Shown here: in pieces, positions 20,249-62,983 of the stretch
Numbering within the stretch: position 1 is the stretch's first letter
Layout: the number at the start of each line of letters is the position of its first letter
Assembly (NCBI GenBank): GCA_019695095.1
Contig: JAIBAQ010000002.1
Coordinates: forward strand, 40,995 to 104,994
Reading direction: 5' to 3'
Length of the DNA: 64,000 nucleotides
From: Candidatus Hydrogenedentota bacterium
GTDB lineage: Bacteria; Hydrogenedentota; Hydrogenedentia; Hydrogenedentales; SLHB01
Made by a program: the position numbers and the translations under genes
The notes under the pieces: model-generated
Told to the model about the DNA's origin: nothing
What the model saw: only the letters and a program-made list of their open reading frames with translations
Databases searched by the model: none

Positions 20249-21475
20249 TCATCGTGTATGAATGGCGTCGAACATGGCAACGATATTGTCCGGAGGGACA
20301 TTGGCGAGTATGTTGTGTACCTGTTGGAATACGAACCCACCGTTCGGACGCAAGGCGCGGACTTGCTCAATTACGTGTTGACGCACTTCGTCCGGTGTCC
20401 CATTCGGCAGCACGCGTTGAGTGTCGCAGCCGCCGCCCCAAAAGGTGATGTCGTTGCCAAAATCGCGTTTGATTGTAACGGCGCTCATGCCTGCGCACGA
20501 GATTTGAACGGGATTGATGGCGTCAAGACCTGCATCGATGAGGTCGGGTAACAATTCGCGCACGCCGCCGCAGCAGTGCAGCATCACCTTCACGTCCGCA
20601 AGCTGCTTCGCGCGGCCCCACATGGCTTTGTGGCACGGCTTGAAGTACTCGCGATACATATCCGGCGAGATCTGCGGACCGCCCTGCGACCCCAGATCGT
20701 CTCCAAACAAAATGACGTCGATATACGGACCGACTGCACCCAGGAATCGCTCCAGATTTGCCAGATGAATCTCAAGTAATCGATCCAGAAAAGCGTGGAC
20801 TTTGTCCGGATCTTCCGCCAGCATCATGAGGAAACCATCGTTTCGCCAGAAGAACTGACCCATCTCCAGCGTGTTTCCGCCGAATAACCCAATGATCGCT
20901 TTGTCCGTCGATGCCCGGAGGCGCTTCGCTCCTTCAGCCAGCCGTTGCAGCCCATCCGGACCCGCCGTGAGAGGTCCCGGGGGTGACGCCACAGCGCACC
21001 ACATGCACTCGCTCATTGCGCCAGGAATATTGTCGATGTCTTCGTGCTCAAGGTAAGGATAGTGTGTCTGTTCAAAGTACAACGCGCCGTCGGGCATCTG
21101 GGCAATCACGCGTCCGCTCGTTGAGCGAATCACCCAACGGGCTCCGTCGCGCTCCGGCAAGGCCCACGCGGGCATCTGACACGGTGTGCCGTCCGGCAAT
21201 GTCCAGTCGGCCCAGTCCTTGTCATCCAGGGCAAATGCGCGGCCCAACTCAATGGTGTCAATGCCGAATCGGGTCAGCACGTCATCATCGACGATGGCGA
21301 GTTGCTGCACCGGGTCATAGACACGTATCGGCCGTTTCGGCAGACCAAGGTGATCGCGCAGTCGCGCATAGGCAATAGCCGCAATACCGCTTGAGCGGTG
21401 CCCAGAAAGATCGACAGCGACCCGATCCGGTTCGCGGTGATTCAACGATGCCAGTACTCGTTCGCGCGAATTCAT
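20249..21475 (-). CDS. URO-D superfamily protein of the MtaA/CmuA methylcobamide-methyltransferase type (annotated as uroporphyrinogen decarboxylase family)
   Basis: About 400 aa with the URO-D TIM-barrel fold and an N-terminal RERVLASLNHREPDRV. Zinc-ligand-like H-x-C motif VMLHCCGGV followed ~75 residues later by GGGC, as in MtaA. It is the last gene of the GH-like/symporter operon. Confidence 0.75.
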   Translation of the reverse strand: MNSRERVLASLNHREPDRVAVDLSGHRSSGIAAIAYARLRDHLGLPKRPIRVYDPVQQLAIVDDDVLTRFGIDTIELGRAFALDDKDWADWTLPDGTPCQMPAWALPERDGARWVIRSTSGRVIAQMPDGALYFEQTHYPYLEHEDIDNIPGAMSECMWCAVASPPGPLTAGPDGLQRLAEGAKRLRASTDKAIIGLFGGNTLEMGQFFWRNDGFLMMLAEDPDKVHAFLDRLLEIHLANLERFLGAVGPYIDVILFGDDLGSQGGPQISPDMYREYFKPCHKAMWGRAKQLADVKVMLHCCGGVRELLPDLIDAGLDAINPVQISCAGMSAVTIKRDFGNDITFWGGGCDTQRVLPNGTPDEVRQHVIEQVRALRPNGGFVFQQVHNILANVPPDNIVAMFDAIHTR

Positions 21476-21508
21476 GTGCGATTCCTCATGACCAGTCGAG
21501 AGTTGGCG

Positions 21509-23233
21509 TTATTCATGCTTGAGGTTTCGATACCAGACGAAATACAGGACGACGGTGAGTGCCGCTACAAGAAGTCCCGCGGCTAATGCTTCCGCAAAGC
21601 GATGCAGGACGATGTAAACGGGGCAAAAGTACATAGCGATGAGCCAGGGTATGCCGACAACGACGGTTGTGAGATCCCATTTGAGCGTGGACACTGAGGT
21701 CGTGTCTGCCTCGTGAGCGATTGGTCCCCAGAAACCCCAGGGGCGAACGTCTCGGTAGAAGCGGACTAGCGTTTCGCGATCGGTGGGTTGTGTTAAGAGT
21801 GTTGTGACCACTGCAATTACGAGGACTGTCAGCGCAATTGCGGGAAACGTCATGTAGAGCGGGAGGGCGGAAGCAGCGGGCGTTAAGGCCTGTATGAGGG
21901 ATAGCACCATTCCCGAAAGTGTGCCGACGGCGTAGCCCCAGCCGTTCATGCGCCACCAATACCACCGCAACACATTCGGCAACAGGACCCCGGCGCCCAA
22001 TGTCCCCATGATCCACGTAAACATTTGGTTGATGGAACTGGCCGCGAACCCAACGCACACGCCCAACACAATGAGTAATGCCGAGGAGACATAGCTCGCG
22101 ACAATCAACTGGCGCTGGGAGGCGGCGGGATTGAGGTACTTGTGATAAATGTCCTTTACGATGTAGCTCGCGCCGCCGTTGACGGTCGAGTTAAACGTCG
22201 CGAGGAATCCTGAGAGTAGTGCCGCAAGCACCACGCCACGCACACCTACCGGCAGCATGTTCTGAATGACTGTCGGAAGGACTTTCTCGGGATCGCCTTG
22301 CTCGGCGAGACCCACGATGCCCATCGCGGCGAGTGCCATGGCCATCGGCCAGCGTACGGTGTGAATAGCGCCCCACAATGCACCGAGTTTTGCCGCTTCG
22401 CGCGGATTCTTTGCCGCGAGGAATCTCTGGAAGTCGTAAAGTTGCTCGGGGCCCGAAAGCGATAAAAGGAGTCCCTTTACGACCCATATCATGAGGAGTG
22501 CGCCGAACAACTGGTATTCGGTGCCGTTCAATGAGTCGAAACTCCATCGCGGAATGATGCTGCCCCAATCCGCGCTGACCTTGGCCTGCAGCATTTCCGG
22601 CGAGACATGGGTGAAGCCGAGCCAGGCGATGAGCAGCGCGCCGCACGTGAGTACGATCGTCTGGAATATCTCCACGATGACGACCCCGTGAAATCCGCCC
22701 ATGACGACATAGATACCCGTGATTCCAAGAATAAGTGCCGCGCATGCGTGTTCGTTAAGTCCCAGGAAAACCGCCCCGAACTTGCCCATGCCTGTTGCGC
22801 CGTACGCGAGAAACGCGGTGATCGTAAGTACGGCGTAGAGCGTGTAGGATGCGCGGGCAACTTCGCCCGCTTTGCCCGATCCGAAGCGCGTTTCCATCCA
22901 TTCCGCGCCGGTCATGACGCCAGAGCGGCGAATCCACTTGCCCATATAGGCCATGTAGAAGACGGGAATGATGAAGCCCCAGATCCACTGGACCCAGAAC
23001 CCCTTGAGTCCCATAACGACAAACAGGCTGACGATCCACATCGTGCCGGTAATGTCGAAATAAGAGGAACTGCCCGACATGGCCAGCGCCCACCACGGCA
23101 GTTGGCGTTCGCCAAGGAAATAGCTGCCAATGTTGCGCGCCGCACGCCGTTTCACCATGGTGCCGAGCGCGACCACAACGACAAGGTAGATTATGACAAT
23201 GATGCTATCGACGGTTCCGAGGCGAATTGACAT
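21509..23233 (-). CDS. Sodium:solute symporter (SSS family) transporter
   Basis: A 574-aa polytopic membrane protein with about 13-14 helices and SSS-family conserved segments (GERQLPWWALAMSG..., GGxxGV). Confidence 0.9.
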   Translation of the reverse strand: MSIRLGTVDSIIVIIYLVVVVALGTMVKRRAARNIGSYFLGERQLPWWALAMSGSSSYFDITGTMWIVSLFVVMGLKGFWVQWIWGFIIPVFYMAYMGKWIRRSGVMTGAEWMETRFGSGKAGEVARASYTLYAVLTITAFLAYGATGMGKFGAVFLGLNEHACAALILGITGIYVVMGGFHGVVIVEIFQTIVLTCGALLIAWLGFTHVSPEMLQAKVSADWGSIIPRWSFDSLNGTEYQLFGALLMIWVVKGLLLSLSGPEQLYDFQRFLAAKNPREAAKLGALWGAIHTVRWPMAMALAAMGIVGLAEQGDPEKVLPTVIQNMLPVGVRGVVLAALLSGFLATFNSTVNGGASYIVKDIYHKYLNPAASQRQLIVASYVSSALLIVLGVCVGFAASSINQMFTWIMGTLGAGVLLPNVLRWYWWRMNGWGYAVGTLSGMVLSLIQALTPAASALPLYMTFPAIALTVLVIAVVTTLLTQPTDRETLVRFYRDVRPWGFWGPIAHEADTTSVSTLKWDLTTVVVGIPWLIAMYFCPVYIVLHRFAEALAAGLLVAALTVVLYFVWYRNLKHE

Positions 23234-23302
23234 GGTTGCATTACCCCCGCGACAGCATACCCCGAGAGAGGGGGCGGGTGAAAGTGCCTTGGAGTCCTCG
23301 AA

Positions 23303-25393
23303 CTACCAATACACGTTGCCCGGGCGAGTCGGCTCGTTCGATCTGGCAATCGCGGCTTGGACTAATTCTATGCGCTTCTTCTTCGATTTCTCTGATTTGG
23401 CCTGTTCAAGGATTGCCTTAATCCCGGGAATATCGCGCAGCGGGATATCGAGCTTGAAGTAGCCGGAATTCCGGTCGCCATGAAGTCTCTCTGTCTCGTT
23501 TCCTAGCTTGCCTGCCTGCTCGCGCAAGGCTTTCATTTCGGGAGTCTCAGCGGCCTCCGACAGGACTTGAAGCGCCTGCTCAATGGCCTTGCCGATCTTG
23601 CCGGACGTGAGCGAAGTCTCAAGTGTTTCCCGTGCACGCTGTTCCTTGTCGAGTTCGATGCGCAATTTGTACTGCAGATATTGGTCCAGGAGTGCCTTCT
23701 GCATGTGGAGGCGCCAACGGTAATCGCGCTCCATGCGCCATGCGGGAATCTTCTCGCCTGCTTCCGTTACGAGATCCAGGTAAGTCTTGATGCCCTGATT
23801 TTCCGCAAGCGGAGCTTCGAGATTTTTCTCCAGTTGCAGAAGCGCTTGAACCATGAGCGGCGCGGCGTCCTCACCGAAGTACAGCACGCAATACTCGTTC
23901 ATCACGTCGTCGAGCGAGCGGTTCGGATTCCACAACAGCCGCGCCCACATGTACTGGTGAAATTCATCATGATTCCCTTCCGAGTATATGATGTCTCCTT
24001 CGGAGAACGGCATGATCGATTGGAAGATGCGATACATGGCAACTGGCCGGGCATGGAACGTACGCCGCCCATACGCCTTCACGATATTGGGTTCGGGATT
24101 TTCGACCTCGTACTGTGAACGTATCCAGTGCGTGATATCCGAGTAATGGACGATCCGTTGATCGCCGGGGAGTTGGTTCAGAATCTCGGAAAGGTAGCGG
24201 TTTACGGGACCCTGCCCCGGATATTCGAACAAGTCGTCTCGCATTTCCTTGTCGCGAAAATAGGGCGACATCGCATTGCTTCCGGGACCGTATGCGATTC
24301 CGTAGCACCACGTGCGAGGCGTTTCTCTGAGAAACGAGAAAATGGCGCGGTCGCCGGCATTGTCGAGGCCTTGGTTGGCAACCATGACAATGCTGTTCGG
24401 ATGCAGCGCCTTCCACTTCGTGGCCAGCTCTTCGCACAGATGCATAAACGTATTGCCCCACGGCGTGCATCGTTCGCAGGTGCAGCCACCGGGATCGCCC
24501 GCGAAGAAGCGCAGCACGTCGTGATCGGCACGCCCCGCGAAATCCGTTTCCCACTGCTTCATGAGCGCATCGTGCGCTTCGGGAACGGATGGGCATACCC
24601 AGTCCTTGCCCTCCCACATTTCGCGTCCACCCGCTTTCCATTCCGGCGGGAACTCAGAGCGCAATTGGTTTGGTCGTACGCCCGTCTCCGTCATGAAACC
24701 GAATGATTTGAGAAACCGGTAATAGGGGCAGTCCTCATTCGGAGAATAAAACAGGTTCGCTCCGGCCATGGCATATTCGAGTCCAACGGCATGGAATTCG
24801 TCATCGGTCCAGACGCGCGCTTTGGCGACGCGCAGCATGGCTCCACCTTGATTGGGCGAGAAACCGCGGAAGCGATATGCAGGTGCGGTGCTGACGTTGA
24901 GACTGGGCAGAGTCACGTGATCGGCTTCGTAGTGGAAACGTCGAACGATCTCGCCCACCGCGTACAAGACGGCACGATCATCGACGCCTACCGCCACAAT
25001 CGCATGGCGGCCACTCTCTTGAATGGTTCTGACGGCGAATCCCTCCGGAAACAGTGTGCTTCCTCGCCCCGGCAGAGTGACTGCGTGTGTTGTGCACAGG
25101 TCGTGAAGCCGTCCTTGCGGACGAGATTTGCCGAGAAAGATCTGCAAATCTGCACCCGAGACGGGTTCTTTCGCGATGTCGATGGTTATATTGCTGACCG
25201 AAAGCAGACGAGTTTTGAGCACATCCGCATCTTGGGTTTCCAAGGGTGTTGCGTCGGGTTCAAGCACGATTGCAAGACGGTTAATTGGGACTGGACCCGA
25301 GTCCACTGCGTGAGCTTCGCCGGAGGCGAGTAGTGCCGTGGCGCACAGCGCGCTCAGGCAACAAGTCAACCGAACCAATCGCACTATATTCAT
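23303..25393 (-). CDS. Secreted glycoside-hydrolase-like protein (TIM-barrel; possibly GH20-related/DUF4838-type)
   Basis: Start trimmed to the Met that begins a signal peptide (MNIVRLVRLTCCLSALCATALLASGEAHA). Cys cluster GDPGGCTCERC and Trp-rich catalytic-domain-like segments. Family assignment is uncertain. Confidence 0.5.
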   Translation of the reverse strand: MNIVRLVRLTCCLSALCATALLASGEAHAVDSGPVPINRLAIVLEPDATPLETQDADVLKTRLLSVSNITIDIAKEPVSGADLQIFLGKSRPQGRLHDLCTTHAVTLPGRGSTLFPEGFAVRTIQESGRHAIVAVGVDDRAVLYAVGEIVRRFHYEADHVTLPSLNVSTAPAYRFRGFSPNQGGAMLRVAKARVWTDDEFHAVGLEYAMAGANLFYSPNEDCPYYRFLKSFGFMTETGVRPNQLRSEFPPEWKAGGREMWEGKDWVCPSVPEAHDALMKQWETDFAGRADHDVLRFFAGDPGGCTCERCTPWGNTFMHLCEELATKWKALHPNSIVMVANQGLDNAGDRAIFSFLRETPRTWCYGIAYGPGSNAMSPYFRDKEMRDDLFEYPGQGPVNRYLSEILNQLPGDQRIVHYSDITHWIRSQYEVENPEPNIVKAYGRRTFHARPVAMYRIFQSIMPFSEGDIIYSEGNHDEFHQYMWARLLWNPNRSLDDVMNEYCVLYFGEDAAPLMVQALLQLEKNLEAPLAENQGIKTYLDLVTEAGEKIPAWRMERDYRWRLHMQKALLDQYLQYKLRIELDKEQRARETLETSLTSGKIGKAIEQALQVLSEAAETPEMKALREQAGKLGNETERLHGDRNSGYFKLDIPLRDIPGIKAILEQAKSEKSKKKRIELVQAAIARSNEPTRPGNVYW

Positions 25394-25455
25394 CAGACCT
25401 TCCTCAATGGGTTGAACTCTCTTCTCAACAGCATCAACGATGAGACGGATGGAGG

Positions 25456-27009
25456 CTATTTCACGCGGATTATTCGCCGGTCGATAAATTCCTGGCCGAA
25501 CATGTCGGTTGTGCGGACGTGAACCGTGTGTGTTCCGGGTGCAAGTGTGCCTGCCAGCTTGCCTTTCCACATGTGGTCGGTGACTGATGGCGGGTCCATC
25601 TTCCAGCCAAGCACGGTATCTAGCTTTTTGCCGAGCACTTCTTGATCCAGGTACGGTCCCAATTCGGACATGCGCTTACAGTCGGGGTCTTCCGTGGGCG
25701 ATTGTTCAAGCGGTATCCATTCTCCGCGGTCGATTCGCATGTCCACGCGGGAGCGGCTGGAGCCGGCAAACACGTTTACCAGGACATCTGTATTGGGCAC
25801 ATCGGCCGCTTGGATTTCAGACGGCAAGTAGATGTTCATCTGATAATCGGCGGGACGACGCGACGCCTTGAAGCGAATGCTGTACTCGGCCCCGTTGAAG
25901 GTAAGTACCGAATAGCCGTTGGGGGCTCCGTCATTCATTGTGGCATGCGGAATGCCGCGTTCGTCGAAGGCGCCGCACCACCAGGAACCGCAGACCGTTG
26001 CGTTGACGAAGAGGTGCAACGGGTTTGCACCCGGCCATCCACCGGCTTTGTCCACAAATCGATGAAACTGGGTGTGCGTGTGGGCCGCGATGGCAAGGAC
26101 CTTGGGTCGCCCCGAAAAGAGCGAAAAGAAGTCGTCCCTGTTTTCACAGCGCAAGAAGGGGATGTGCATGAGGAGCACGACCAATCGATCGTTGGAGACT
26201 CTTTCTAGGTAGGCCTTCACAAACGATAGCTGATCGTCCGTGAACCGGCAGACCGATTTGCCATCGGGTTTGAAAAAGACGTCATTCAGGTTGATGAAAG
26301 AAACCTCGCCGTATTCGAAGGCGTACGTGCTCGGACCATAAACGAGCTCATATGTGTCGTCTGCATATTCGTTGGCTGTCGCGTCGCGATTGTAGTCGTG
26401 ATTGCCGAAGGTGTTGTACCACGGAATCCCGATTTGTCCGATGCTCTGATTAATTGTCGTGAACAGGCCCGGGTCGTCAGCGACGATGTCGCCAAGCGAA
26501 ATACCAAAAGCCGCAGATGTCCCGGCACACTCTTCGACCACGTCGTGGGTCACAAAGTCGACTTCCTTTGTGCCGCGCGCCTGAGGGTCGCCAAACAACA
26601 GCACGTCGAACATTGCGGGTTCGTCTTGTTTGAAGACAGCGAAGTTGATGGATGGGGGTAACGGTCCTGTTGGGGGGACGCCCGCCACCTGCTTGACTGG
26701 TGAGCCTTTCGGTTTGTGGTGATAGAAATACTGGGGTATTTGGTCTGAGTTAACTTGGACGCCCCATCCAGCAGGTTTGATGACGAAGAGCGTGCAGTCG
26801 TCGTCTGAAGGAAGAGACCACTTGCCCGATTCATCTGTGACGACCAAATCGCGTCCGTTAGAGACGCACACGTCCGGCACACCCGGTTCGCCGTTGTCGA
26901 GGATGGAATTGCTGTTTAGATCGTTGTACACCATGCCGCGGGCTTCTGCCTGGCCGTGAGCGGCGGCCGTACACGCGAGTGCAACGCCAAGGACTAGTAA
27001 TCGCCGCAT
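25456..27009 (-). CDS. Secreted calcineurin-like metallophosphoesterase with N-terminal SdrD-B/Cna-B-like domain
   Basis: Signal peptide MRRLLVLGVALACTAAAHG. GDPQ and GNHD (NTFGNHDYN) metallophosphatase motifs. Start trimmed from the track ORF. Confidence 0.7.
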   Translation of the reverse strand: MRRLLVLGVALACTAAAHGQAEARGMVYNDLNSNSILDNGEPGVPDVCVSNGRDLVVTDESGKWSLPSDDDCTLFVIKPAGWGVQVNSDQIPQYFYHHKPKGSPVKQVAGVPPTGPLPPSINFAVFKQDEPAMFDVLLFGDPQARGTKEVDFVTHDVVEECAGTSAAFGISLGDIVADDPGLFTTINQSIGQIGIPWYNTFGNHDYNRDATANEYADDTYELVYGPSTYAFEYGEVSFINLNDVFFKPDGKSVCRFTDDQLSFVKAYLERVSNDRLVVLLMHIPFLRCENRDDFFSLFSGRPKVLAIAAHTHTQFHRFVDKAGGWPGANPLHLFVNATVCGSWWCGAFDERGIPHATMNDGAPNGYSVLTFNGAEYSIRFKASRRPADYQMNIYLPSEIQAADVPNTDVLVNVFAGSSRSRVDMRIDRGEWIPLEQSPTEDPDCKRMSELGPYLDQEVLGKKLDTVLGWKMDPPSVTDHMWKGKLAGTLAPGTHTVHVRTTDMFGQEFIDRRIIRVK

Positions 27010-27179
27010 GAGTATGACTCCTAATTGGATATTCGTAACAGAGTCCACTCTACCTGTCGCGCGGGTGCGGGGGCAAAACAGGCGCGGCTTGAACGCCGCG
27101 GACGAAACCTTCAGCATGGGCCTGCACGGCACGGGTTCTCCTCCAATCGTATGTATTCAAGGAAAGGACGGGGTAGGGG

Positions 27180-33248: not shown

Positions 33249-34085
33249 CTATGCTTTGACGTAGAGCACGTCGTTGGCCAATTTCTTGAGCCATTTTCGT
33301 TCGCTTGCGCGAACGCCAGTGTCTGTAATGATGCGGTCGAATTGTTTCACAGCCGCATAGCGGCAGAAAGACCGACGGCCAATTTTGCTGTGGTCTACGA
33401 CGAGTATTCGCTGCGTGCCTGCCTGCATGACACCTTCGCACACGCTGGCAAGATCCAGGGCAATCGTGAAGACGCCATCCGGCGTGACGCCGTCAGCGCC
33501 TACAATAGCGTAGTCTACGTGAAAACGAGTCAAGTTCTCCGCGGTGAGCCACCCCGTCAAGTCCGGGCTGCCCCTGCGCGCCGTGCCACCCAGCAGCACC
33601 GTTTCCAGCTCGTCGTGTGCGTAGAGAACCGACGCAATAGCCAACGAACTCGTGAGGACGGTAAGGCCTGGAATTCCCGCGATGGCTTTTGCCACTTCCA
33701 GCGTTGTTGTTCCGCTATCGAGGGCCACCGACGAGCCCGGTTCAATCATTGCCGCCACCGCGCGGGCAATTGCGCGCTTCTCAGGGGCATTGGTGTTGCC
33801 ACGTTCCTGGAAGGCAAACTCGACGATACCGGGCTTCGATAGGATGGCGCCCCCGTGCGTGCGCGTGATGCTGCCCACTTGTTCGAGTTGCTGAAGGTCG
33901 CGACGGATGGAAGCGAGACTCACCGAAAACTTCTCGGCAAGCTCTTGAGCCGTGACCTCGCCTTTACCGTTGAGGTGTCCGACGATTTGGCCGTGACGTA
34001 CATTCGCTGCGCGACTACTCTTGCCCACGGAGATTTGTTCCTCTCTTTCTTTGGGCTTGACGTGGCTCGATTCGGGTATTATCAT
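33249..34085 (-). CDS. DeoR/GlpR-family transcriptional regulator
   Basis: N-terminal HTH (VTAQELAEKFSVSLASIRRDLQQLE) and a C-terminal DeoR sugar-phosphate-binding domain. The true start may lie ~20 codons downstream of the track start. Confidence 0.8.
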   Translation of the reverse strand: MIIPESSHVKPKEREEQISVGKSSRAANVRHGQIVGHLNGKGEVTAQELAEKFSVSLASIRRDLQQLEQVGSITRTHGGAILSKPGIVEFAFQERGNTNAPEKRAIARAVAAMIEPGSSVALDSGTTTLEVAKAIAGIPGLTVLTSSLAIASVLYAHDELETVLLGGTARRGSPDLTGWLTAENLTRFHVDYAIVGADGVTPDGVFTIALDLASVCEGVMQAGTQRILVVDHSKIGRRSFCRYAAVKQFDRIITDTGVRASERKWLKKLANDVLYVKA

Positions 34086-34160
34086 AGTGCGCAGAAACGA
34101 GCAAAAACAATCATAAAACGCGCAAGTTGTCCTGCTCTACTCAAGAAAGGAAAAACCGGT

Positions 34161-35003
34161 ATGAACCGGAAGAACGTAGCCTGGGCATTGCCCTTGTCGA
34201 TGCTGCTGGCAGTCTTGACCATGCTTTCCTCGGTGGCCGCCGCGGCACCCGAGTCGGTGCTTCCTCCGCCAAAGAATGGGCATGTGTATGTCGTTGCCCA
34301 CCGTGGAGCCCATCAGGGGATTCCTGAAAACACCCTTCCCGCGTACCAGAAGGCCATCGATCTTGGCGCTGACTTCGTGGAGATCGACGTACGCACCACC
34401 AAAGACGGTAAGTTTGTCAGTGTTCACAACGGCAAGGTGGACGATTACACCCAGGGTGCCGTGAAGGGCAATGTCTCGGATATGACCTTGGAGGAGCTTC
34501 GCGCGCTGGACATCGGGAGCCGTGTCGGTCCCGAATGGAAGGACACGAAGATACCCACGTTTGAAGAGATCCTTGACCTATGCAAAGGAAAAATCGGCAT
34601 CTATCTCGATCTCAAGGCGGCCGAGGTTGCGCCCCTCATCAAAGAGATCAAGGCCCGAGGCATGGAACGCAGTGTGATTTGGTATGCGGGGCCGAGTAAG
34701 TTGAAAGAGGTAGTCAAGCTCTGTCCCGAGTGTATCCCCATGCCCGACCCCTATGAGATGAAGAACCTTCCTAAATTGCTCGAGCAGGATAAGCCGCGAC
34801 TTGTGGCGTCTTCTTGGGACTTCTACTCGAAGGAGTTTGCAGAGAAGTGCCACGCGGCGGGTGCGTTAGTGATCGTTGACGACGATGGCCCCCAGTGCTG
34901 GGGGCCTGCCTTGGACTGGGGCACCGACGGAATTCAAACTGACGAGCCCGAACAGTTGATTGCGTACATAAAGCAGCGCGAAAGCGCCAAAAGCACTAAA
35001 TAG
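34161..35003 (+). CDS. Secreted glycerophosphodiester phosphodiesterase (GDPD family)
   Basis: Start trimmed to a Met with an AAAGGA ribosome-binding site and a signal peptide. GDPD motifs HRGAHQGIPENTLPAY and EIDVRTTKDG. Divergent from the DeoR regulator. Confidence 0.8.
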   Translation: MNRKNVAWALPLSMLLAVLTMLSSVAAAAPESVLPPPKNGHVYVVAHRGAHQGIPENTLPAYQKAIDLGADFVEIDVRTTKDGKFVSVHNGKVDDYTQGAVKGNVSDMTLEELRALDIGSRVGPEWKDTKIPTFEEILDLCKGKIGIYLDLKAAEVAPLIKEIKARGMERSVIWYAGPSKLKEVVKLCPECIPMPDPYEMKNLPKLLEQDKPRLVASSWDFYSKEFAEKCHAAGALVIVDDDGPQCWGPALDWGTDGIQTDEPEQLIAYIKQRESAKSTK

Positions 35004-35100: not shown

Positions 35101-37257
35101 TCACTTCTTGAACTGAAGGAAATGGGTTCTGACTTCATCCTGGCTTAGCGCGCGATCATAGAGTCTGACTTCGTCAAGAAGACCCTCAAAATGGGACTGG
35201 TGCCCCACCGCGAAGTTGCCAAGAACTAGAGGGAACGCGTTTGGATGAACTGGTCCGGGCCGCTCCATCACGCCTTCCTCCTCACCATCGACGTAGATGC
35301 GCAACATCTGGCCGTCAAACGTACCAGCCAAGTGTACCCAGCGACCCGTCGGCAACGGCTCTTTTGCGGTCAAATGATGGCTCCAGTCCGTAAGTGGCAC
35401 CTCGAAGCACGGCTTTCCGTCCAAAACGCCCAAACGATATCCGGTCGAAGTCCCACCGCCAAACACTCGATTCACGCACCACGTGTTTTGCTGGCCCGCG
35501 ACGTCGGTTTTCACCCAGCATTCCACAGTCAACGCAGTCTTGGGCGAGAGGCGTGGGTCGTTGGGAACTTCAACACTTCCGCCCTCGCAAACCAAGGCGT
35601 TGCCGTCGATTCCCTGCGTGCGGCGCGCATTCTGTAATTTTCCGCCCAGACAGTGTCCCGAGTAGTCCATGGCGATCGGCGACTCCAGATCTTCGTCGAA
35701 TGCCCACCATCCGATCAGGCCCGGCTCCTGAGTGTCACCCTTGATTACGTGTTTTGCGAGTTGGCCCTTAAGCGCTTGCTCGCGTGCTACATGCTCCTTG
35801 TAGGCGGTGTCGTAGGGACCCATGCCGATGTCTTCGGGAAGAAGGTCCACATGCGGCGGCGGCATCGTCGCGAATACTTCCCGTACGGCATCGAGATAGC
35901 CGAAGCCATATTCGCGATACGGCGCCAGGTAATGGCCTTCGCTCCATTCGTTCCAGTTGTCCAACAGCAGCATCTTGCTGCCCAGCTCCGTTGCGGGAAA
36001 CGTCGCAATGATGTCTTTGGCCTTCCCGAGTAGCGTCTTGAAATCATCGGGAGGAATCTTCCAAATTGTGCCTTCGTCGTGCCAGCCGCTCCATGCCTGA
36101 GACACCGTGACGACTTGTGGAATGATGCCTATTTGCTGGGTCTTTGTAATGTAATCGACTTGTGCCTCGATTGCTTTTGCAGGGGTCGGGTTATCCGGTA
36201 CGTACCACACGTAGGCAAACGTGTAATCGAGTCCGATGCGCCTCATCAGCTTCAGGTGTTCCGCATCAAGACCCCGGTATTCGCCCAGAATGTACAAACC
36301 GTCGAATCCTGCGTCTTTGCAGGCCTGCCTCATCAAATCGAACGCTTTCACAACATTCTCTTCGCTTCCCAGGTCGTCGATGAGGAATTCAGGACGATAG
36401 ATGAAGAGCAGCGGCTTATTGTCAATCTTGAGATAGTTGGATCGCTTGAAATAGTTCTCGATCCAGAAGGGGAGCAGGTTTCCCATGAGGTCCTTCTCGT
36501 CCGAAACTCCGGCACGCCCCCGTGATTGGTTCTCCCACATGATTGTGAAGTTCATGATGTCGCCGAACTTCGATTTGAACAATGCGTCATGAATAGCGCT
36601 GCTGAAGTTCATCTCTATGGGACCACCTTGGCTGGCGCGATACCAGCAGTAGATGAAGAAGTTCACTCCGTGCTCCACGGCCCACTTTGTTTCCCAATCG
36701 GCAACCTCCGGATTCTCTTGAGAATAGAAACCGAGAGCAGGTGTGCGTTCCGGGTGTTTGAGCACTTGCGCCCACATGTTGGGCTTGTCGGCTTCCCAGA
36801 GCGGGCAATTGTGCGCACCGACCAGAATCTCAGTTTTAACGGGCACGGGATCGGGGATGTACGGAAGCTTCTGCACTTCCACGGGGGGGAGCACATTCAG
36901 CGTAAGTGTTGCCGTTGGTCCGCCTGCATTGCCCGCTCGGACCGCTGCCGCAAGTGCGAACGTCCCCGGCACATCGAATTCCACGCTCCAAGTCACTTCA
37001 CGCTTGCTTCGCGCGTCCAGCGTTAGCGACTGTGCAGAAGGCGCGTCCTTTAAATGCACTCCCTCCTGCAGTACCAGTGATACCTCGGCTGAGACCGGGG
37101 TGTCTCCTGTGTTTTCAACCACGAGGCTAACGCCAACTACTCGTTGCGCCCTGAAGATGGGTCTGTCCGGTTCAAAGCGGCTTATGGATATATCGGCCCA
37201 CGATGAACAGACGCAGACAATAAAGACAAGCCAGGCAATCCCATGACAACTACGCAT
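35101..37257 (-). CDS. Secreted glycoside-hydrolase-like protein with C-terminal LamG (concanavalin A-like) domain
   Basis: Signal peptide. Central TIM-barrel-like region. C-terminal ~180 aa with a LamG/laminin-G-like pattern (GNALVCEGG...LTVECWVK...RWVHLAGTFDG...LRIYVDG...DEVRLYDRALS). Confidence 0.5.
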   Translation of the reverse strand: MRSCHGIAWLVFIVCVCSSWADISISRFEPDRPIFRAQRVVGVSLVVENTGDTPVSAEVSLVLQEGVHLKDAPSAQSLTLDARSKREVTWSVEFDVPGTFALAAAVRAGNAGGPTATLTLNVLPPVEVQKLPYIPDPVPVKTEILVGAHNCPLWEADKPNMWAQVLKHPERTPALGFYSQENPEVADWETKWAVEHGVNFFIYCWYRASQGGPIEMNFSSAIHDALFKSKFGDIMNFTIMWENQSRGRAGVSDEKDLMGNLLPFWIENYFKRSNYLKIDNKPLLFIYRPEFLIDDLGSEENVVKAFDLMRQACKDAGFDGLYILGEYRGLDAEHLKLMRRIGLDYTFAYVWYVPDNPTPAKAIEAQVDYITKTQQIGIIPQVVTVSQAWSGWHDEGTIWKIPPDDFKTLLGKAKDIIATFPATELGSKMLLLDNWNEWSEGHYLAPYREYGFGYLDAVREVFATMPPPHVDLLPEDIGMGPYDTAYKEHVAREQALKGQLAKHVIKGDTQEPGLIGWWAFDEDLESPIAMDYSGHCLGGKLQNARRTQGIDGNALVCEGGSVEVPNDPRLSPKTALTVECWVKTDVAGQQNTWCVNRVFGGGTSTGYRLGVLDGKPCFEVPLTDWSHHLTAKEPLPTGRWVHLAGTFDGQMLRIYVDGEEEGVMERPGPVHPNAFPLVLGNFAVGHQSHFEGLLDEVRLYDRALSQDEVRTHFLQFKK

Positions 37258-37343: not shown

Positions 37344-38348
37344 TTACTGGTTCTGCAGGACGTCAAGCATGGCAGCGACATTTTCGGGTCGCGCGTCGCC
37401 AGGCACCGCGTGCGCTGGTGAGGCGAACAAACCGCCGTTTTCACCAACGCGCTCCAGAAGCTGTCGGACGTGAGTCCGAACCTCATGGGGTGTAGCGTAG
37501 GGCAGGATTTGCTGTGTGCTTATACCACCGTGAAAGCAAAGCCGATCGCCGTAGCGTGCTTTTGCGTCGAAGACGTCAATGACCTCCGGTTGAAACGGAT
37601 TGAATACGTCGATGCCTGCGTCGATCAGGTCGGGGAACAATTCGTCCACCTTTCCACATGAATGGATGAATACGAATTTCCCGTGCTTCTTTACATGCGA
37701 GTACATGCATCGAGCTCGGGGAAGGATGAATTTCCGCCAGAGATCGCGGCCCATCAAGAGGCCGCGTTGACTCCCCCAGTCGTCGCCGAAATACATCGCA
37801 TCGATAGCGTATTTGCAGGCACGGTCGATCACGGCAAGATTGAACTCCAGTATGCGGTCAAGCAATGCGTGAACGAACTCGGGTTGAGCTACCATTCCCA
37901 TCAAGACGTTTTCCATGCCTGCCAAGGTCCAAGCGCGCTCGAAGAGCGAGAAACCTAGGTTCGCAATGATGAAGCGATCGTCTTGTTGCTCTTTTGACTT
38001 GGGAAAGCCCTCGTAGCGCGTTGAGTCATTGGGGTCGGGCAATTCGAACGAGTGGACGTTCTCCGGAGTGACCAGGCTGTTGCATACAACACCGATATCC
38101 TTGTCGACAGACCGGTCCCACAGCACTCCAAAAGGATCGCGCCAGACATTCGGCGCCGTCTCCGTCCATGCATTTGCCGGGTTTGTGTCCAGCAGGGTGA
38201 GGCAATTGCCCAGCGCCGTCTCGAAATCCGAGTGGCCGAAGTATCCAACCATCACCGCGCGCGCCTTCTGTGTAAACTCCACGTTGTACGGCACGAAATC
38301 GGGCTGCTCGTGGCGAAGCGTCGCCAGCACACGCTCACGGTTCGTCAT
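37344..38348 (-). CDS. URO-D superfamily protein of MtaA/CmuA methyltransferase type (paralog of 20249..21475)
   Basis: Same N-terminal RERVLATLRHEQPDFV. H-x-C motif FIHSCGKV, DLIDAGIDVFNP, and a downstream CFHGG. About 335 aa. Confidence 0.75.
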   Translation of the reverse strand: MTNRERVLATLRHEQPDFVPYNVEFTQKARAVMVGYFGHSDFETALGNCLTLLDTNPANAWTETAPNVWRDPFGVLWDRSVDKDIGVVCNSLVTPENVHSFELPDPNDSTRYEGFPKSKEQQDDRFIIANLGFSLFERAWTLAGMENVLMGMVAQPEFVHALLDRILEFNLAVIDRACKYAIDAMYFGDDWGSQRGLLMGRDLWRKFILPRARCMYSHVKKHGKFVFIHSCGKVDELFPDLIDAGIDVFNPFQPEVIDVFDAKARYGDRLCFHGGISTQQILPYATPHEVRTHVRQLLERVGENGGLFASPAHAVPGDARPENVAAMLDVLQNQ

Positions 38349-38381: not shown

Positions 38382-40517
38382 TCAAAAGGTCAATTCCTTC
38401 TCCGACTCGACGTTCTTCAGGAGATCCTCTTTCTTGAACCATGTCGGCTTGAATGTGCGTTCGGCATACAATTTCTGAGCCTGATCTACGTGATGGGGGG
38501 AGGCCGGGTCTGCGCTCTGACCCCAATTCAGAATGCTGTATGACTCGATGCCGTCGCGATGAAGGAGCGTGAGCAGAATTGTGTGCGAGCCGCCTACACC
38601 GACGAACTTCCCGGATCCCTTAGGCTCCTCACGGCAATCCACATCCATGACAGTCTCCGTGCGGTCCATCTGTCCACCACCGCCAAACTCTGCGCCGGGA
38701 CAGGCAAAGTACTTGCCGTTGCGTCCAATGAGATTGATGTCGCCCCACGTGATATCCAATGTGCCGTAGACCTTCTTCATTTCAGCCACAGCGTCATCAA
38801 GCTTGTCGAGCAAGAGACTCTGATTCTCAGTGCTCAGGGGCTTGCCCTGAGCTATGTCTGGCATGGGAAGGCTTTGCTCGCACTTTAAGCGCCAATAGCG
38901 CATATAGGGTCCGGCCTTGCTGTCTCTCGTGAAGAAACCATCCCAACCGAGAATCACCGAGACGGCGCGTGCAAAATCCGGGTTCGACTTATGCAGGTCT
39001 TTATGGGCGTCCAAGGCCTCGCGTAGCGCCTTCTGCCAGGGTTTTGCAGAGATATCGTAGACATCGAGCGCATACTTCATCGCTTCATCTTTGGTTACGG
39101 AAGAATCCGCGTCGATCAGTTCCACCAGTCTTGCTCCGCGAGGAGTCTGATAGTCCCACGTCACGTTGTACAGGTACGGCTTGTACTTGTCCGGAGTCAT
39201 CGGAGATTCCTTCATCATGTTCTCCGGGCTGATATTGCAGTTGACGAAGTAACCTTGAGGCGGGTTTTCCATTTGTACGAGCTCGTCTATCTTGTGAATG
39301 CCCTTCCATCGTGTGGCTTCCGTGCCGCCCGGCACCGGGACAGACCAGTTATACCCTTCCGGACGCACGGGCGTATTGCCGTTTCGAAGATACCGGATGT
39401 TGCCTTCCGTGTCAGCGAAGGACACGTTTACCTCTACCAACTGGAGCATGGACAAAGCCTGGTAGAACTCGCTGCAATTCTTGGCGGAGACCATCTGCAG
39501 GAGTTGCTCAAGGACCCGGCTCTCGCCGAAGTAGGGTGATGCTCCGCAGTACGCGATCCCTTTTGCCGTGTCAGGTTCTGCAATCACCGGGCCGTAAAGC
39601 GAATAGACCATGGGCTTCTGCAGAGTGGGATTGTCCTTTATTGCGATGGAGGTCATCTTGACATCGAACTCGCGCCACTCTCCGTTGTACTGGTATTGAA
39701 GCGGGTTCTGCGGATTCAGCTTCACCATGTACACGTCGGCTGTGTCGGGTCCGCCGACGCAGTATGCCCAAGCCACGTGTCCCGAATGCCCCACGGCTGG
39801 CAGCGGGGTTCCCACCATCCAGAAGCCGCACAGATCGACATTCCCGGCATGCATGCGCCCTTCGTAAAAGAGCTCCATCCCTTCCCATGTAAGGTGCGGG
39901 TCGGCCAGAAAGATCGGGCAGCCTTCCGCCGAGCGGGACGGTCCGATGGCGAAGGCATTTGAGCCAAATGAGGGCGCCTTATCCTTTCGGCTGAGTTCTC
40001 GCATGACCGTCTCCAGCGGCCAATTCAACATCATGGCCCGCTGGATGGCCGCGCATTGCCAACCGTGCAACTCCACAGCAAATGGAGGCTTCTTGTCGGG
40101 GTACTCGGACACATACGCTTCGACGCCCCGCATGAAGTTGTCTCCCAGCTCGGTTATGTAAGATGGGGCGGTTGTCCAGTACTTCTTGCACAGTTCGTCG
40201 TTGCCCACAAGGCGCATGATGTAGTCGCGTTCGGCGAATTGAGGGCCAAACACTTCGGATAGCGTACCGGTCGCGATTCGCACGTTCTTGTAGATATCCT
40301 CAAGCCGATCCTCGGCCTGGGCATATCCCATCGCGTAAGCGGCTTCCGCCAGCGTTTCTGCGTAAACGTGTGGGGTGCCCCACGTATCACGAAAGAGAGT
40401 TGCCTTGTGGGCATCGTTTGCGCCGGCACTCGCCAACAGCGAACCCGCAAGACAGGCCCATATTGTGAAGTTGAGAGCACGGATCGCCTCTCTCTTCGAA
40501 TCACGCGTTGCTATCAC
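38382..40517 (-). CDS. Penicillin amidase / acyl-homoserine-lactone acylase family protein (peptidase S45, Ntn-hydrolase)
   Basis: Signal peptide. Autoproteolytic site ...GS/NAFAIGPSRSAEG with the N-terminal nucleophile Ser. Length 711 aa, fitting an alpha-spacer-beta organisation. Confidence 0.85.
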   Translation of the reverse strand: MIATRDSKREAIRALNFTIWACLAGSLLASAGANDAHKATLFRDTWGTPHVYAETLAEAAYAMGYAQAEDRLEDIYKNVRIATGTLSEVFGPQFAERDYIMRLVGNDELCKKYWTTAPSYITELGDNFMRGVEAYVSEYPDKKPPFAVELHGWQCAAIQRAMMLNWPLETVMRELSRKDKAPSFGSNAFAIGPSRSAEGCPIFLADPHLTWEGMELFYEGRMHAGNVDLCGFWMVGTPLPAVGHSGHVAWAYCVGGPDTADVYMVKLNPQNPLQYQYNGEWREFDVKMTSIAIKDNPTLQKPMVYSLYGPVIAEPDTAKGIAYCGASPYFGESRVLEQLLQMVSAKNCSEFYQALSMLQLVEVNVSFADTEGNIRYLRNGNTPVRPEGYNWSVPVPGGTEATRWKGIHKIDELVQMENPPQGYFVNCNISPENMMKESPMTPDKYKPYLYNVTWDYQTPRGARLVELIDADSSVTKDEAMKYALDVYDISAKPWQKALREALDAHKDLHKSNPDFARAVSVILGWDGFFTRDSKAGPYMRYWRLKCEQSLPMPDIAQGKPLSTENQSLLLDKLDDAVAEMKKVYGTLDITWGDINLIGRNGKYFACPGAEFGGGGQMDRTETVMDVDCREEPKGSGKFVGVGGSHTILLTLLHRDGIESYSILNWGQSADPASPHHVDQAQKLYAERTFKPTWFKKEDLLKNVESEKELTF

Positions 40518-40574: not shown

Positions 40575-41651
40575 CTACTTCGATCGCGTATCGAAAGGCG
40601 GCACAATCGCGCGCACCGAAGCACGCTCCAGCAATTCAGGAGTGACCCATTCCGTAATTAGGTCCATTGGACCCCGATTTTCGATTACTCTAACCAGCAA
40701 CTTCGCCGTCATTTCTCCCATCACGTGAGGGAGCGTGTCCACCGTCGTCAGCGGAGGGCCCAGCAGTTCCGCGAAATCGATGCCATCGAATCCGACCACG
40801 CTCAAGTCGCCCGGAATGTCGAGGGAGAGTTCGTGAGCGGCCCGATACGTACCCATTGCCACCATGTCATTAAAGCACACGAGTGCAGTGGGTCTGGTGA
40901 CGGGGTTCTTCAAGAGGTTGAGTGCGGCGCGGTATCCCGCTGCGGCCGTTTCTCCGGCGTCTGCGAACACTGCCTCGGACACAGGGATGTCATGTTCGAT
41001 CAACGCTTCAACAAACCCCAATTGCCTTTCTTTATCCGTTACAGAGAACGTGGGGCCGGCCAAGTACGCCAAGCGGCGGTGCCCCTTGGAGATTACGTAC
41101 TCTGCGGAAAGCTTCATCGCGGCCCGATTGTCCACTTGAATGCTGTGCGACTCGGTCCCCACCAGTTTGCCTTGCGCTACCAAGGGAACCCCTTCCTCAA
41201 TGATGCGGCGCGCATACACCCCGCCGGGTCCTTCCGCCCCGCGCAGGACGATGTAACCCGCCGGGCGGTAGGCGTACAAATTCTGGAGGGTTTCGGGGTC
41301 GTCTTGGTCCTCAGGGCGAACGCTCCGGAAAAGAATGTGATAGCCATGCGCTTCCAAGGTCGCATTGATGCCTCGGAACATCATCATGTGGAACGGACTG
41401 CCCATATTGGAGGCGAGGACGGCAATCATGCGCGACAATCGCCCCACAAAGGCCCGCGCAATGTTCCCCGAAGCGTAATTGCCCTGGCGTAAGCACTCGA
41501 GGACTTTGCGCCTCGTCTGCTCGCGCACATTGGGTTTCCCATTCAGAACTGCGGACACCGTTGAGCGAGATACTCCGCACAGCCGGGCAATCTCGGCGGT
41601 GGTGGTGGCGCGCTTCGTCTTGTTTGCTGTCTCTGTTTTCATGACATCCAC
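40575..41651 (-). CDS. LacI-family transcriptional regulator
   Basis: HTH TTAEIARLCGVSRSTVSAVLNG, then a periplasmic-binding-protein-like sugar-binding core. Confidence 0.9.
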   Translation of the reverse strand: MDVMKTETANKTKRATTTAEIARLCGVSRSTVSAVLNGKPNVREQTRRKVLECLRQGNYASGNIARAFVGRLSRMIAVLASNMGSPFHMMMFRGINATLEAHGYHILFRSVRPEDQDDPETLQNLYAYRPAGYIVLRGAEGPGGVYARRIIEEGVPLVAQGKLVGTESHSIQVDNRAAMKLSAEYVISKGHRRLAYLAGPTFSVTDKERQLGFVEALIEHDIPVSEAVFADAGETAAAGYRAALNLLKNPVTRPTALVCFNDMVAMGTYRAAHELSLDIPGDLSVVGFDGIDFAELLGPPLTTVDTLPHVMGEMTAKLLVRVIENRGPMDLITEWVTPELLERASVRAIVPPFDTRSK

Positions 41652-41720
41652 GTTGTGCCGCGTACCTTCATCTCCATTATTGCACGCTTTGAGCTAAAAA
41701 TCAACAAATGATAATTATTG

Positions 41721-41737
41721 AATTGCTATTAGCAATT
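41721..41737. promoter_or_regulatory. 17-bp palindrome AATTGCTATTAGCAATT, candidate operator ~70 bp upstream of the LacI gene
   Basis: Perfect 8-bp arms around a single central base. Lies in the AT-rich region shared by the LacI gene and the divergent DUF1559 gene. Confidence 0.3.
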
Positions 41738-61881: not shown

Positions 61882-61996
61882 GATTTGCTCCTCGTTCCAG
61901 TAGTGTTTTTCCAGCGAAGGCTAACCGCTATTCCGTCGCCGTGCCCAAGCTTCGAGGCTGTGATCGTTGGCACCACACGCGCCCGCCGTCAATACG

Positions 61997-62920
61997 TCAC
62001 TTACCCGAAGCGTTCTTTCGCGGCAGGAAGAGCGAGACCTCTCGGTGCATACAGTACATCCGGTACCGTTGCCCGTCATTCACCAAGATCCCGCTGGAGT
62101 TGTCGACACCGATTATTGGATTGCCTGGATACTTCTGCCAGTGAATGAGATCCTTGGATGCCGCAACGTTCATAGTCCACTTGTCGGGTCCATTCGCCGG
62201 CGCAGTCGCATGGTAATACGCGTAGTAGCAATCATCGTACTTCACGATCTGATTGAGAGCGATCATCTTCGTGTCATACGGTTCGGGACCCCGCTTAATC
62301 ACCGGTTCATCCTGAATGTTCTTCCACGTCTTCAAGTCTTTCGAGGTCGCTACCCAGATTGCCTCGTCGTCTCGCTCGTAGAACAAGTACCACACTTCGT
62401 TTTCGAACAGGACGCACGGTGTCCCAAACGGTCCGGGTTTCAATGGGGAACCGTCTGCATATCGAATGTCGAGCGTACCTCGATCGGTCCACTGGACACG
62501 GTCTGTTGATGTGAGCAAATGGGCGTGGTCATTAGTCCCTTCCGCGAACATGTAGTACGTGTCGCCCTGCTTCACCACGATCATGTCTTCTACCCATGTC
62601 CGATCGTAAATTGGTGCATCAGAATACCGCTTCCACGTATACCCGTCCGTCGATGTGGCAAGACCCAGCTTCATGACAGGTGCTTTTCCTGGCACGTACC
62701 CCGTGTACCACATGGTGTAGGTGTCGCCTTCTTTCATGATCCACCCTCGTTCCCGGATGGCCTCATCCCAATGCCCTGGACCGCTGCCTTCAAAGAGCGG
62801 GTTATGTCCGTAGGGCACGAAGTCCACCAACTCAGAGGGGAATGGCAACGGAGGCTCGGCTGCTGCCATGAAAAGTGACACTGCTACACTTAGAGACAAG
62901 AGCATTCGTTGAACCTCCAC
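61997..62920 (-). CDS. Secreted five-bladed beta-propeller glycosidase/phosphorylase-like protein (GH43/GH130/GH117-type fold)
   Basis: Signal peptide. Repeated W/Y-rich blade signatures (TMWYTGY, YYMFAEG, WYLFYERDD, YYAYYHAT) typical of the 5-bladed propeller CAZyme clan. Specific family not resolved. Confidence 0.5.
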   Translation of the reverse strand: MEVQRMLLSLSVAVSLFMAAAEPPLPFPSELVDFVPYGHNPLFEGSGPGHWDEAIRERGWIMKEGDTYTMWYTGYVPGKAPVMKLGLATSTDGYTWKRYSDAPIYDRTWVEDMIVVKQGDTYYMFAEGTNDHAHLLTSTDRVQWTDRGTLDIRYADGSPLKPGPFGTPCVLFENEVWYLFYERDDEAIWVATSKDLKTWKNIQDEPVIKRGPEPYDTKMIALNQIVKYDDCYYAYYHATAPANGPDKWTMNVAASKDLIHWQKYPGNPIIGVDNSSGILVNDGQRYRMYCMHREVSLFLPRKNASGK

Positions 62921-62983
62921 GGAATTCGCGTGCTACTCCCGCGCAGTGGCTCCGGACCCACTGCTCTTCATCACCCTGGACGA

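Follow-up and report, generated by a model that had tools for sequence, protein, structure and literature searches.

Apart from HemE, the characterized members of the URO-D superfamily are MtaA, MtbA, CmuA, MtvB, OdmB, and CdmB (PMC13222342), and the chemistry of every one of them is alkyl transfer. The demethylase methyltransferases I (MT I) of acetogens (MtvB, OdmB, VdmB, and CdmB; 9rui), which belong to the same superfamily, remove a methyl group from a small substrate, with zinc in some cases and without it in others (PMC13222342). Here we describe a gene at positions 37344–38348 (minus strand) of a 64,000-nucleotide stretch from a Candidatus Hydrogenedentota bacterium (GenBank assembly GCA_019695095.1, contig JAIBAQ010000002.1, positions 40,995–104,994), hereafter called the window, which encodes a 334-residue protein of the URO-D fold. 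The product is an orphan, MtaA-like, probably metal-dependent enzyme of a huge uncharacterized subfamily, whose gene sits behind a LacI-acylase unit in this lineage. At the level of the locus, we are fairly confident of a real gene from an orphan subfamily whose synteny is not conserved.

The protein matches the Pfam URO-D family (PF01208) with an E-value of 2.6e-27, over residues 86–332 only. Its top-scoring NCBIfam model is mtaA_cmuA (TIGR01463), above hemE (TIGR01464), with 71.3 bits versus a cut-off of 235.4 for the former and 23.5 bits versus 302.95 for the latter; the MtaA equivalog model gives 49 bits versus a cut-off of 400. By these profile scores, the protein falls outside both curated families and sits on the MtaA/CmuA methyltransferase side of the superfamily. 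A previous interpretation made from the letters of the window (the sequence-only reading) had called the protein MtaA-like, which is fair as a statement of resemblance because mtaA_cmuA scores above hemE, and which does not hold as membership because both fall far under the cut-offs. The protein has a predicted mass of ~37 kDa and is cytoplasmic, without a signal peptide.

The AlphaFold2 model (mean predicted local distance difference test score (pLDDT) 95.7, predicted template modelling score (pTM) 0.92) is a (beta/alpha)8 barrel with the distorted TIM-barrel topology of the URO-D fold, and it carries a beta-hairpin-rich insertion or lid of ~80 residues at approximately positions 40–120. When the model was compared with PDB using Foldseek, the top matches were the structures of Methanosarcina mazei MtaA (4ay7/4ay8; template modelling (TM) score 0.73, E 7e-13 for 4ay7, 16–17% identity), followed by HemE structures (TM ~0.72) and then by MetE and BHMT. 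In sequence comparisons, HemE 3cyv, CdmB 9rui (a chloromethane methyltransferase), and MtaA are the closest proteins of solved structure and reach only E ~1e-5 to 1e-7; CdmB is the top sequence-profile match in PDB, with E 2e-5 over the C-terminal 73 residues.

In the profile alignment to MtaA, His229 and Cys231 fall on the HICG motif and His313 falls on the Cys of the PGCG motif. The resulting His-Cys-His triad (His229-x-Cys231...His313) occupies the three zinc-ligand positions of MtaA and is predicted to form a metal site; His, like Cys, can ligate zinc. At the same positions, HemE has neither His nor Cys at the first two, and the third is a conserved His (His313 aligns in NLGHGI, human His339). 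Among 115 diverse relatives with 29–54% identity, Asp190, His229, and Gly232 show no variation; Cys occupies position 231 in 81% and Asp does so in 18%, and His occupies position 313 in 57%. The complete triad is present in 46% of them, both paralogs of the window included. Asp190, His229, and Cys231 are located at the C-terminal face of the barrel, which is its catalytic face. The exchange of Cys for Asp at position 231 of an otherwise invariant site would fit a metal ligand.

Database entries name such proteins "uroporphyrinogen decarboxylase family protein", and the Pfam match, the alignment of His313 with the conserved histidine of the HemE GHG sequence, the fold (TM ~0.72), and the Asp at the end of the FDxWG strand are features shared with HemE (TIGR01464; 3cyv, 1uro). 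A true decarboxylase of uroporphyrinogen or a related tetrapyrrole is nevertheless very improbable, given the hemE score far below its cut-off, the His-x-Cys motif where HemE has none, and the lack of haem-biosynthesis genes near any of the loci. HemE binds its substrate through an N-terminal arginine motif of the RQAGRY type (Arg37 and Arg41 in the human enzyme). This motif is absent from residues 1–60 of the 334-residue protein, the N-terminal 85 residues of which lie off the URO-D profile, and the Pfam and HemE alignments begin only at residues 86–95. The N-terminal sequence VPYNVEFTQKA instead resembles VPVCSVTQTG of MtaA.

The gene is the third of four that run in the same direction on the minus strand with intergenic gaps of 57, 33, and 86 bp, an arrangement that the sequence-only reading had described correctly, together with the family of each gene, as Pfam confirmed. 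The first gene (40575–41651, minus strand) encodes a LacI-family transcriptional regulator with the Pfam LacI helix-turn-helix and Peripla_BP_1/3 domains; it matches the RbsR/PurR/GalR-like models of NCBIfam, with every score under the cut-off. It is followed by the gene for a secreted S45 N-terminal nucleophile (Ntn) acylase of 711 residues (38382–40517, minus strand; Pfam Penicil_amidase PF01804, E 2e-116, residues 39–699). The URO-D gene comes next, and the last gene (35101–37257, minus strand) encodes a secreted protein of 718 residues with a Glyco_tran_WbsX domain (E 3.8e-21) and a C-terminal Laminin_G_3 domain (E 9e-31), hereafter the WbsX/LamG protein. A consensus scan detected no terminator-like site in the three intergenic gaps; by consensus scan only, a terminator-like hairpin with a T-run was located just 3′ of the last gene (34974–34989, minus strand). 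A promoter-like element, TTGATT-17-AATAAT with a TG extension, is present upstream of the LacI gene (41676–41704, minus strand), and this TTGATT...ATAATG block is conserved in L012, a relative with 78% identity. Since the genes share one direction, are tightly spaced, and stand behind a LacI regulator, co-transcription is plausible, and the URO-D gene is probably transcribed from the LacI promoter together with the acylase and WbsX/LamG genes in this genome.

We compared this arrangement with 85 ortholog loci (L numbers below), each covering ~7 kb on both sides of the ortholog, and with 80 ortholog-bearing loci of GTDB species representatives. The URO-D genes in the 85 loci were called by a homology-supported pick, as longest-ORF (open reading frame) calling missed approximately a quarter of them. 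The order acylase–URO-D–WbsX(/LamG) occurs only in two relatives, L012 (78% identity) and L094/L014 (76%). L012 shows GH42, DUF1559, and LacI genes (GH, glycoside hydrolase) followed by acylase, URO-D, and WbsX. In L094, two ADP-ribosylglycohydrolase-family genes are located between the acylase and URO-D genes (L094:1-3247), and WbsX/LamG, GDPD, DeoR, DegT, GFO, 3-keto-hydrolase, and GH106 genes follow. Both loci are collinear with the window across the whole region, unrelated genes included, which indicates shared ancestry and not selection for a four-gene unit. A homolog of the acylase, WbsX, or LamG was found within 7 kb of the ortholog in just one of the 80 species-representative loci, that of the close relative.

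The contexts of more distant orthologs are different. In L009 (72% identity), the URO-D gene follows a LacI gene and a GH43-like gene, the window orthologs of which lie 20 kb away beside GH172; the acylase located 6 kb from this URO-D ortholog is a paralog with only 28% identity. We also observed that the window has the order LacI–GH43-like (307 residues)–GH172 at 59803–63847 (minus strand), and that in L009:1-9005 the GH43-like ortholog (57%) directly precedes the URO-D gene and the GH172 ortholog (60%) follows the paralogous acylase. Judged by gene order, the same gene set is reshuffled among LacI-headed units in Hydrogenedentes. The ortholog in L095 (69%) stands alone among unrelated genes, a 68% ortholog follows a GH123-like gene, and the contexts differ again in Kiritimatiellota and one other phylum. 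On this evidence, the acylase/WbsX arrangement is a recent, lineage-restricted juxtaposition in Hydrogenedentales, and URO-D is a module that occurs independently of the acylase and WbsX/LamG genes in many unrelated contexts.

The sequence-only reading had suggested that the four genes form a dedicated operon dismantling an N-acylated or O-methylated glycan or glycolipid; in such a scheme, the acylase would deacylate, the WbsX/LamG protein would cut, and the URO-D protein would demethylate. The common strand, the gaps of 33–86 bp, the LacI gene at the head, and the absence of intergenic terminator-like sites agree with an operon, as does the preservation of the order in L012 and also in L094, where two genes are inserted. 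The paralogous acylase 6 kb from the URO-D ortholog of L009, and a URO-D protein of a different subfamily near a WbsX/GH99-like gene in L099, also point in this direction. However, the synteny is missing in 79 of the 80 species-representative loci and in the loci of acylase orthologs with 56–66% identity, and the conserved cases reflect the whole-region collinearity of close relatives; conservation in related genomes, on which the proposal had staked itself, essentially fails outside one order. The acylase and the WbsX/LamG protein each have a signal peptide and the URO-D protein has none, and the proteins therefore do not act in one compartment, contrary to a single pathway on a decorated glycan. 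In addition, the motif search described below found no corrinoid protein that would serve a demethylase, and these analyses gave no indication of N-acylated or O-methylated glycan substrates. The acylase is nearest to glutaryl-amide and succinyl-amide acylases and not to acyl-homoserine lactone (AHL) acylases. We therefore regard the dedicated operon as improbable. The observation itself is confirmed, and its interpretation as a pathway is partly supported.

Clustering of the 529 neighbour genes from the 85 loci revealed only one strongly conserved arrangement, which is found in nine Planctomycetota genomes across Phycisphaerae and Pirellulales (L027, L028, L029, L030, L033, L035, L037, L041, and L050; for example, L035:3488-10316). 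The order in these loci is PGM/PMM–DUF1805–AP_endonuc_2–Ada-Zn-ribbon protein–URO-D–DUF1638–metallophosphatase–MntP, and the DUF1638 gene immediately downstream of URO-D is the only conserved partner. DUF1638 co-occurs with a RamA-like corrinoid activase; it is needed together with a split B12-dependent methionine synthase in Phaeobacter inhibens, and in Ruegeria (R. pomeroyi) it is induced alongside a corrinoid methyltransferase system (PMC5764234, PMC12478193). This adjacency is the only clue that points to cobalamin; the window holds no DUF1638 homolog. Outside the Planctomycetota cluster, 73 immediate same-strand neighbours match 108 Pfam families, the commonest of which, sulfatase, accounts for four of them. 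Within four genes of the ortholog, we counted sulfatase and AP_endonuc_2 in seven loci each, LacI and MR_MLE in five each, Zn-ADH and FGGY kinase in four each, and DeoR and DegT in three each, mostly families with cytoplasmic sugar-processing functions. Further URO-D paralogs are located within the same distance in seven loci, sometimes in tandem.

Comparison with the methylcobamide methyltransferases MtaA, MtbA, and CmuA (TIGR01463; 4ay7) shows a common URO-D fold (TM 0.73), a His-x-Cys motif at the same strand end, and an N-terminal P....TQ sequence. The 334-residue protein differs from them in the residue at the third ligand position, which is His and not Cys, in the ~80-residue lid insertion at 40–120, and in the absence of a nearby corrinoid protein, second methyltransferase, or activase in the 85 loci. 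The genes of the acetogen MT I enzymes lie in clusters of methyltransferase I, corrinoid protein, and methyltransferase II (MTI-CP-MTII) in anaerobic acetogens, whereas the 334-residue family has no such cluster and spans Planctomycetota, Armatimonadota, Gemmatimonadota, Poribacteria, and other phyla.

We propose that the His-Cys-His(-Asp) triad would bind a metal (zinc or similar), and that the bound metal would activate a heteroatom of the substrate for transfer of an alkyl, most likely a methyl, group. Alkyl transfer is suggested because it is the chemistry of every characterized member of the superfamily other than HemE. The substrate would be a small molecule that reaches the enzyme after import into the cytoplasm; a modified monosaccharide is plausible. 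Any corrinoid carrier would be encoded elsewhere, perhaps serviced by DUF1638. By analogy with these enzymes, a methyl- or alkyl-transfer mechanism is possible, on the doubtful side; the combination of the locus-level reading with metal-dependent alkyl transfer is the best overall explanation we can offer, and our confidence in it falls a little short of even.

Several observations weigh against this proposal. The protein scores far under the MtaA/CmuA cut-off and is only 16–17% identical to MtaA, and no more than 57% of the wider family carries His at the third ligand position. With its many Gln, Asn, Trp, and Asp residues, the pocket would equally suit a sugar-binding enzyme of another chemistry. 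The characterized URO-D-type methyltransferases are normally clustered with a corrinoid protein and a second methyltransferase (PMC13222342), and the corrinoid-protein motif DxHxxG...SxL...GG was found in none of the 85 ortholog loci and in no reading frame of the window, in a regular-expression search that atypical corrinoid proteins would escape. No biochemical function is established for DUF1638, which adjoins the URO-D gene in a single phylum only. Sugar-type families lie within four genes of the ortholog in 33 of the 85 loci, a count without a null expectation or control for background sugar-gene density, and many orthologs adjoin housekeeping genes such as those for SRP54, GreA, AlaRS, and PolA.

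The lack of a corrinoid partner in any locus, by the same motif search, also favours a different type of enzyme, one that would be metal-dependent and corrinoid-independent and would carry out a chemistry new to the URO-D fold, such as isomerization, decarboxylation, or hydrolysis of a sugar derivative, in cytoplasmic monosaccharide catabolism. The recurrent neighbours (FGGY and PfkB kinases, MR_MLE dehydratase-like proteins, Zn-ADH, AP_endonuc_2, Amidohydro_2, sulfatases, and LacI/DeoR) and the pairing of a 408-residue paralog with an SSF symporter are consistent with this idea, and the conserved residues Gln194, Gln253, Gln279, Asn250, Asn323, Trp140, Trp191, Glu137, and Asp71 line the mouth of the barrel. 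In contrast, such chemistry has no precedent in the superfamily, the His-x-Cys motif lies exactly on the zinc ligands of MtaA, the DUF1638 adjacency points towards cobalamin, and the neighbour families are heterogeneous, none exceeding ~10% of the loci. We consider a new chemistry unlikely on balance, while giving it more weight than the other alternatives.

Identity above 60% across phyla and the housekeeping neighbours (SRP54, GreA, AlaRS, and PolA) could also be explained by a housekeeping thiol methyltransferase of cobalamin or methionine metabolism, MtaA-like or MetE-like, acting on homocysteine or a similar thiol, with the glycan cluster being incidental. The conserved Planctomycetota cluster holds DUF1638, the URO-D/MetE clan performs zinc-thiolate alkylation, and MetE and BHMT are among the fold matches. 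A S-adenosylmethionine (SAM) riboswitch on a divergent neighbour in L089 would agree with this role; however, it does not control the URO-D gene, and an Rfam scan of 30 ortholog loci and the window detected no riboswitch upstream of URO-D. The occurrence of several paralogs per genome, sometimes in tandem (seven loci), and a His-rich triad unlike the Cys-rich thiol-activating sites also disagree with a housekeeping role, which we judge to be quite improbable. As observations in their own right, the riboswitch of L089, an Anaerolineales locus (L089:6685-6817, minus strand; 84 bits), precedes a gene for 382 residues without a Pfam match and then a PfkB kinase gene, with the riboswitch-bearing gene divergent from the URO-D ortholog; elsewhere, the Rfam scan identified a tRNA in L001.

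The acylase has an N-terminal signal peptide and full-length matches in PDB (4e57/3s8r, E ~1e-49). Its nearest solved relatives are glutaryl-7-aminocephalosporanic acid (glutaryl-7-ACA)/cephalosporin acylases and D-succinylase, whereas the match to PvdQ-type AHL acylases is poorer and partial. The beta chains of the solved acylases begin at query residue 186, in the sequence GSNAF, and Ser186 aligns with residue 1 of the beta chain. The full-length match, the nucleophile Ser at the start of the beta chain, and the secreted precursor are thus shared with the glutaryl-7-ACA/cephalosporin acylases and D-succinylase, and these likenesses suggest a preference for dicarboxylic acyl amides over fatty N-acyl groups. 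The enzyme differs from the glutaryl-7-ACA/cephalosporin acylases in its setting, behind a LacI gene and among glycoside hydrolase genes, with an ADP-ribosylglycohydrolase-family partner elsewhere.

This partner was evident in the loci of acylase orthologs with 56–66% identity (for example, L100:5959-9443, L101, and L102), in which an ADP-ribosylglycohydrolase-family (PF03747) gene comes next with overlapping stop and start codons. GH42, DUF1559, and LacI genes are kept upstream of these orthologs, and the LacI-acylase adjacency is kept in L012 and L100–L102. No URO-D or WbsX gene lies downstream of the acylase in any of the five acylase-ortholog loci that extend past the acylase gene. Hence the gene order is such that the conserved unit looks like LacI–acylase–ADP-ribosylglycohydrolase-family gene, and work on the acylase would better be directed at this unit.

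For the WbsX/LamG protein, solved relatives were found for the LamG/ConA-like part only (a carbohydrate-binding-module-like module of an arabinanase and an S-layer domain), and none was found for the catalytic part. The WbsX-type domain is a GH99-related TIM barrel according to a Pfam co-hit in L099. Its secretion makes a hydrolase more likely than a Leloir glycosyltransferase.

The sequence-only reading had also referred to another MtaA-like paralog, which we confirmed at 20249–21475 (minus strand; 408 residues, Pfam URO-D E 4.6e-21); the window contains no third copy. This paralog shares the His-x-Cys...His triad, has a larger insertion near its N-terminus, and is 34% identical to the 334-residue protein over the C-terminal 236 residues. 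Its gene is located 33 bp downstream of a sodium:solute symporter gene (21509–23233, minus strand; Pfam SSF E 1.8e-34). The 408-residue orthogroup is more than 70% identical across Hydrogenedentota, KSB1, Planctomycetota, and a Bathyarchaeia bin. In the distant genome of L098 (3404-12815), a 74%-identical ortholog stands beside an SSF symporter (45%) and a MetallophosN/C phosphatase (46%). By this measure of synteny, the neighbourhood of the 408-residue paralog (20249–27132) is more conserved than that of the block containing 37344–38348. The preservation of the symporter and metallophosphatase in a distant genome, together with the 33 of 85 loci noted above, bears out the suggestion that MtaA-like proteins recur near sugar genes.

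A WbsX/GH99-like gene and GH106 recur near the 408-residue-type URO-D gene of L099, from Candidatus Anammoximicrobium. We also observed, in this single case, that a gene for a DUF6513/Pterin_bind/DUF4346 protein (L099:8401-9771, minus strand) adjoins and is convergent with the URO-D gene; a second methyltransferase would be expected to have such a pterin-binding domain. Beside the paralog in the window, the listed ORFs of a DUF4838 protein (23303–25570, minus strand) and a metallophosphatase (25456–27132, minus strand) overlap by 115 bp, and the downstream GTG start was probably called too early.

A perfect 8+1+8 palindrome, AATTGCTATTAGCAATT, at 41721–41737 (strand not applicable), ~70 nucleotides upstream of the LacI start, was considered as a candidate operator and overlaps promoter-like hexamers. 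There is no second copy in the window and none in any ortholog locus, and the palindrome is not conserved in the 78% relative (L012). It was rejected as a regulon-defining LacI operator, since a unique and non-conserved element defines no regulon.

The remaining genes of the window are rich in glycan functions, including GH42, GH106-like, two GH172, GH116, and GH43-like proteins, GFO/IDH oxidoreductases, a 3-keto-disaccharide hydrolase, an AP_endonuc_2 protein, and an ABC sugar transporter. The base rate of sugar genes as neighbours is therefore high here. The GDPD ORF at 33855–35003 (plus strand), as listed, overlaps the DeoR ORF at 33249–34085 (minus strand) by ~230 bp; because its Pfam match begins at residue 149 and the ortholog in L094 has 279 residues, the true start is probably near 34160.

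Among 1.84 billion representatives at 50% clustering, 10,157 match the family with E ≤ 0.001 and 900 with E ≤ 1e-30. Within the best 120 matches, the 334-residue orthogroup is 60–78% identical to the query. Its named members, together with ortholog loci down to 45% identity, come from Hydrogenedentota, Planctomycetota, Kiritimatiellota, Verrucomicrobiota, Armatimonadota, and Chloroflexota, and further from Spirochaetota, Omnitrophota, Poribacteria, Gemmatimonadota, and some Bacillota. NCBI entries 100% identical to both paralogs come from a 108 kb contig of a Candidatus Hydrogenedentes metagenome-assembled genome, an origin which replaces the Planctomycetota/Verrucomicrobiota origin that had been assumed for the window. 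No domain fusion was found among the long representatives P0237, P0157, P0228, P0261, P0269, and P0233, which hold URO-D domains only; a single fragment departs from this pattern by its SSF N-terminus and is probably an artefact of gene calling.

The four-gene "operon" itself is no discovery, since the genes stand together only locally, within a single lineage. The part that deserves recording is the protein family, with ~10,000 clusters at 50% identity and 60–70% identity across phyla, concentrated in environmental glycan degraders. It represents an uncharacterized URO-D subfamily with no solved structure and no corrinoid partner found in its loci, in which the metal site of MtaA would be kept in an altered form. 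In the library searched, no paper was found that links URO-D family proteins to polysaccharide utilization or to glycoside hydrolases, and none on corrinoid-dependent demethylation of methylated polysaccharides; a cytochrome P450 is known to demethylate 6-O-methyl-galactose (PMC6292453). Speculatively, and with only a slim chance of being right, the 334- and 408-residue orthogroups could be metal-dependent, oxygen-independent sugar demethylases or dealkylases that would transfer O- or S-methyl groups of monosaccharides to a cobalamin carrier, DUF1638 having an accessory role. If this were true, they would be the counterpart of the P450 enzyme (PMC6292453), and the idea would explain the thousands of such genes without an MTI-CP-MTII cluster in the glycan degraders of Hydrogenedentota, Planctomycetota, Kiritimatiellota, Armatimonadota, and Anaerolineae. 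If the protein is instead a cobalamin-linked housekeeping enzyme, its pairing with DUF1638 would give a handle on a second family without a function. Were its substrates modified sugars, the enzyme would close a gap in the understanding of how cells lacking oxygenases handle methylated or otherwise capped monosaccharides.

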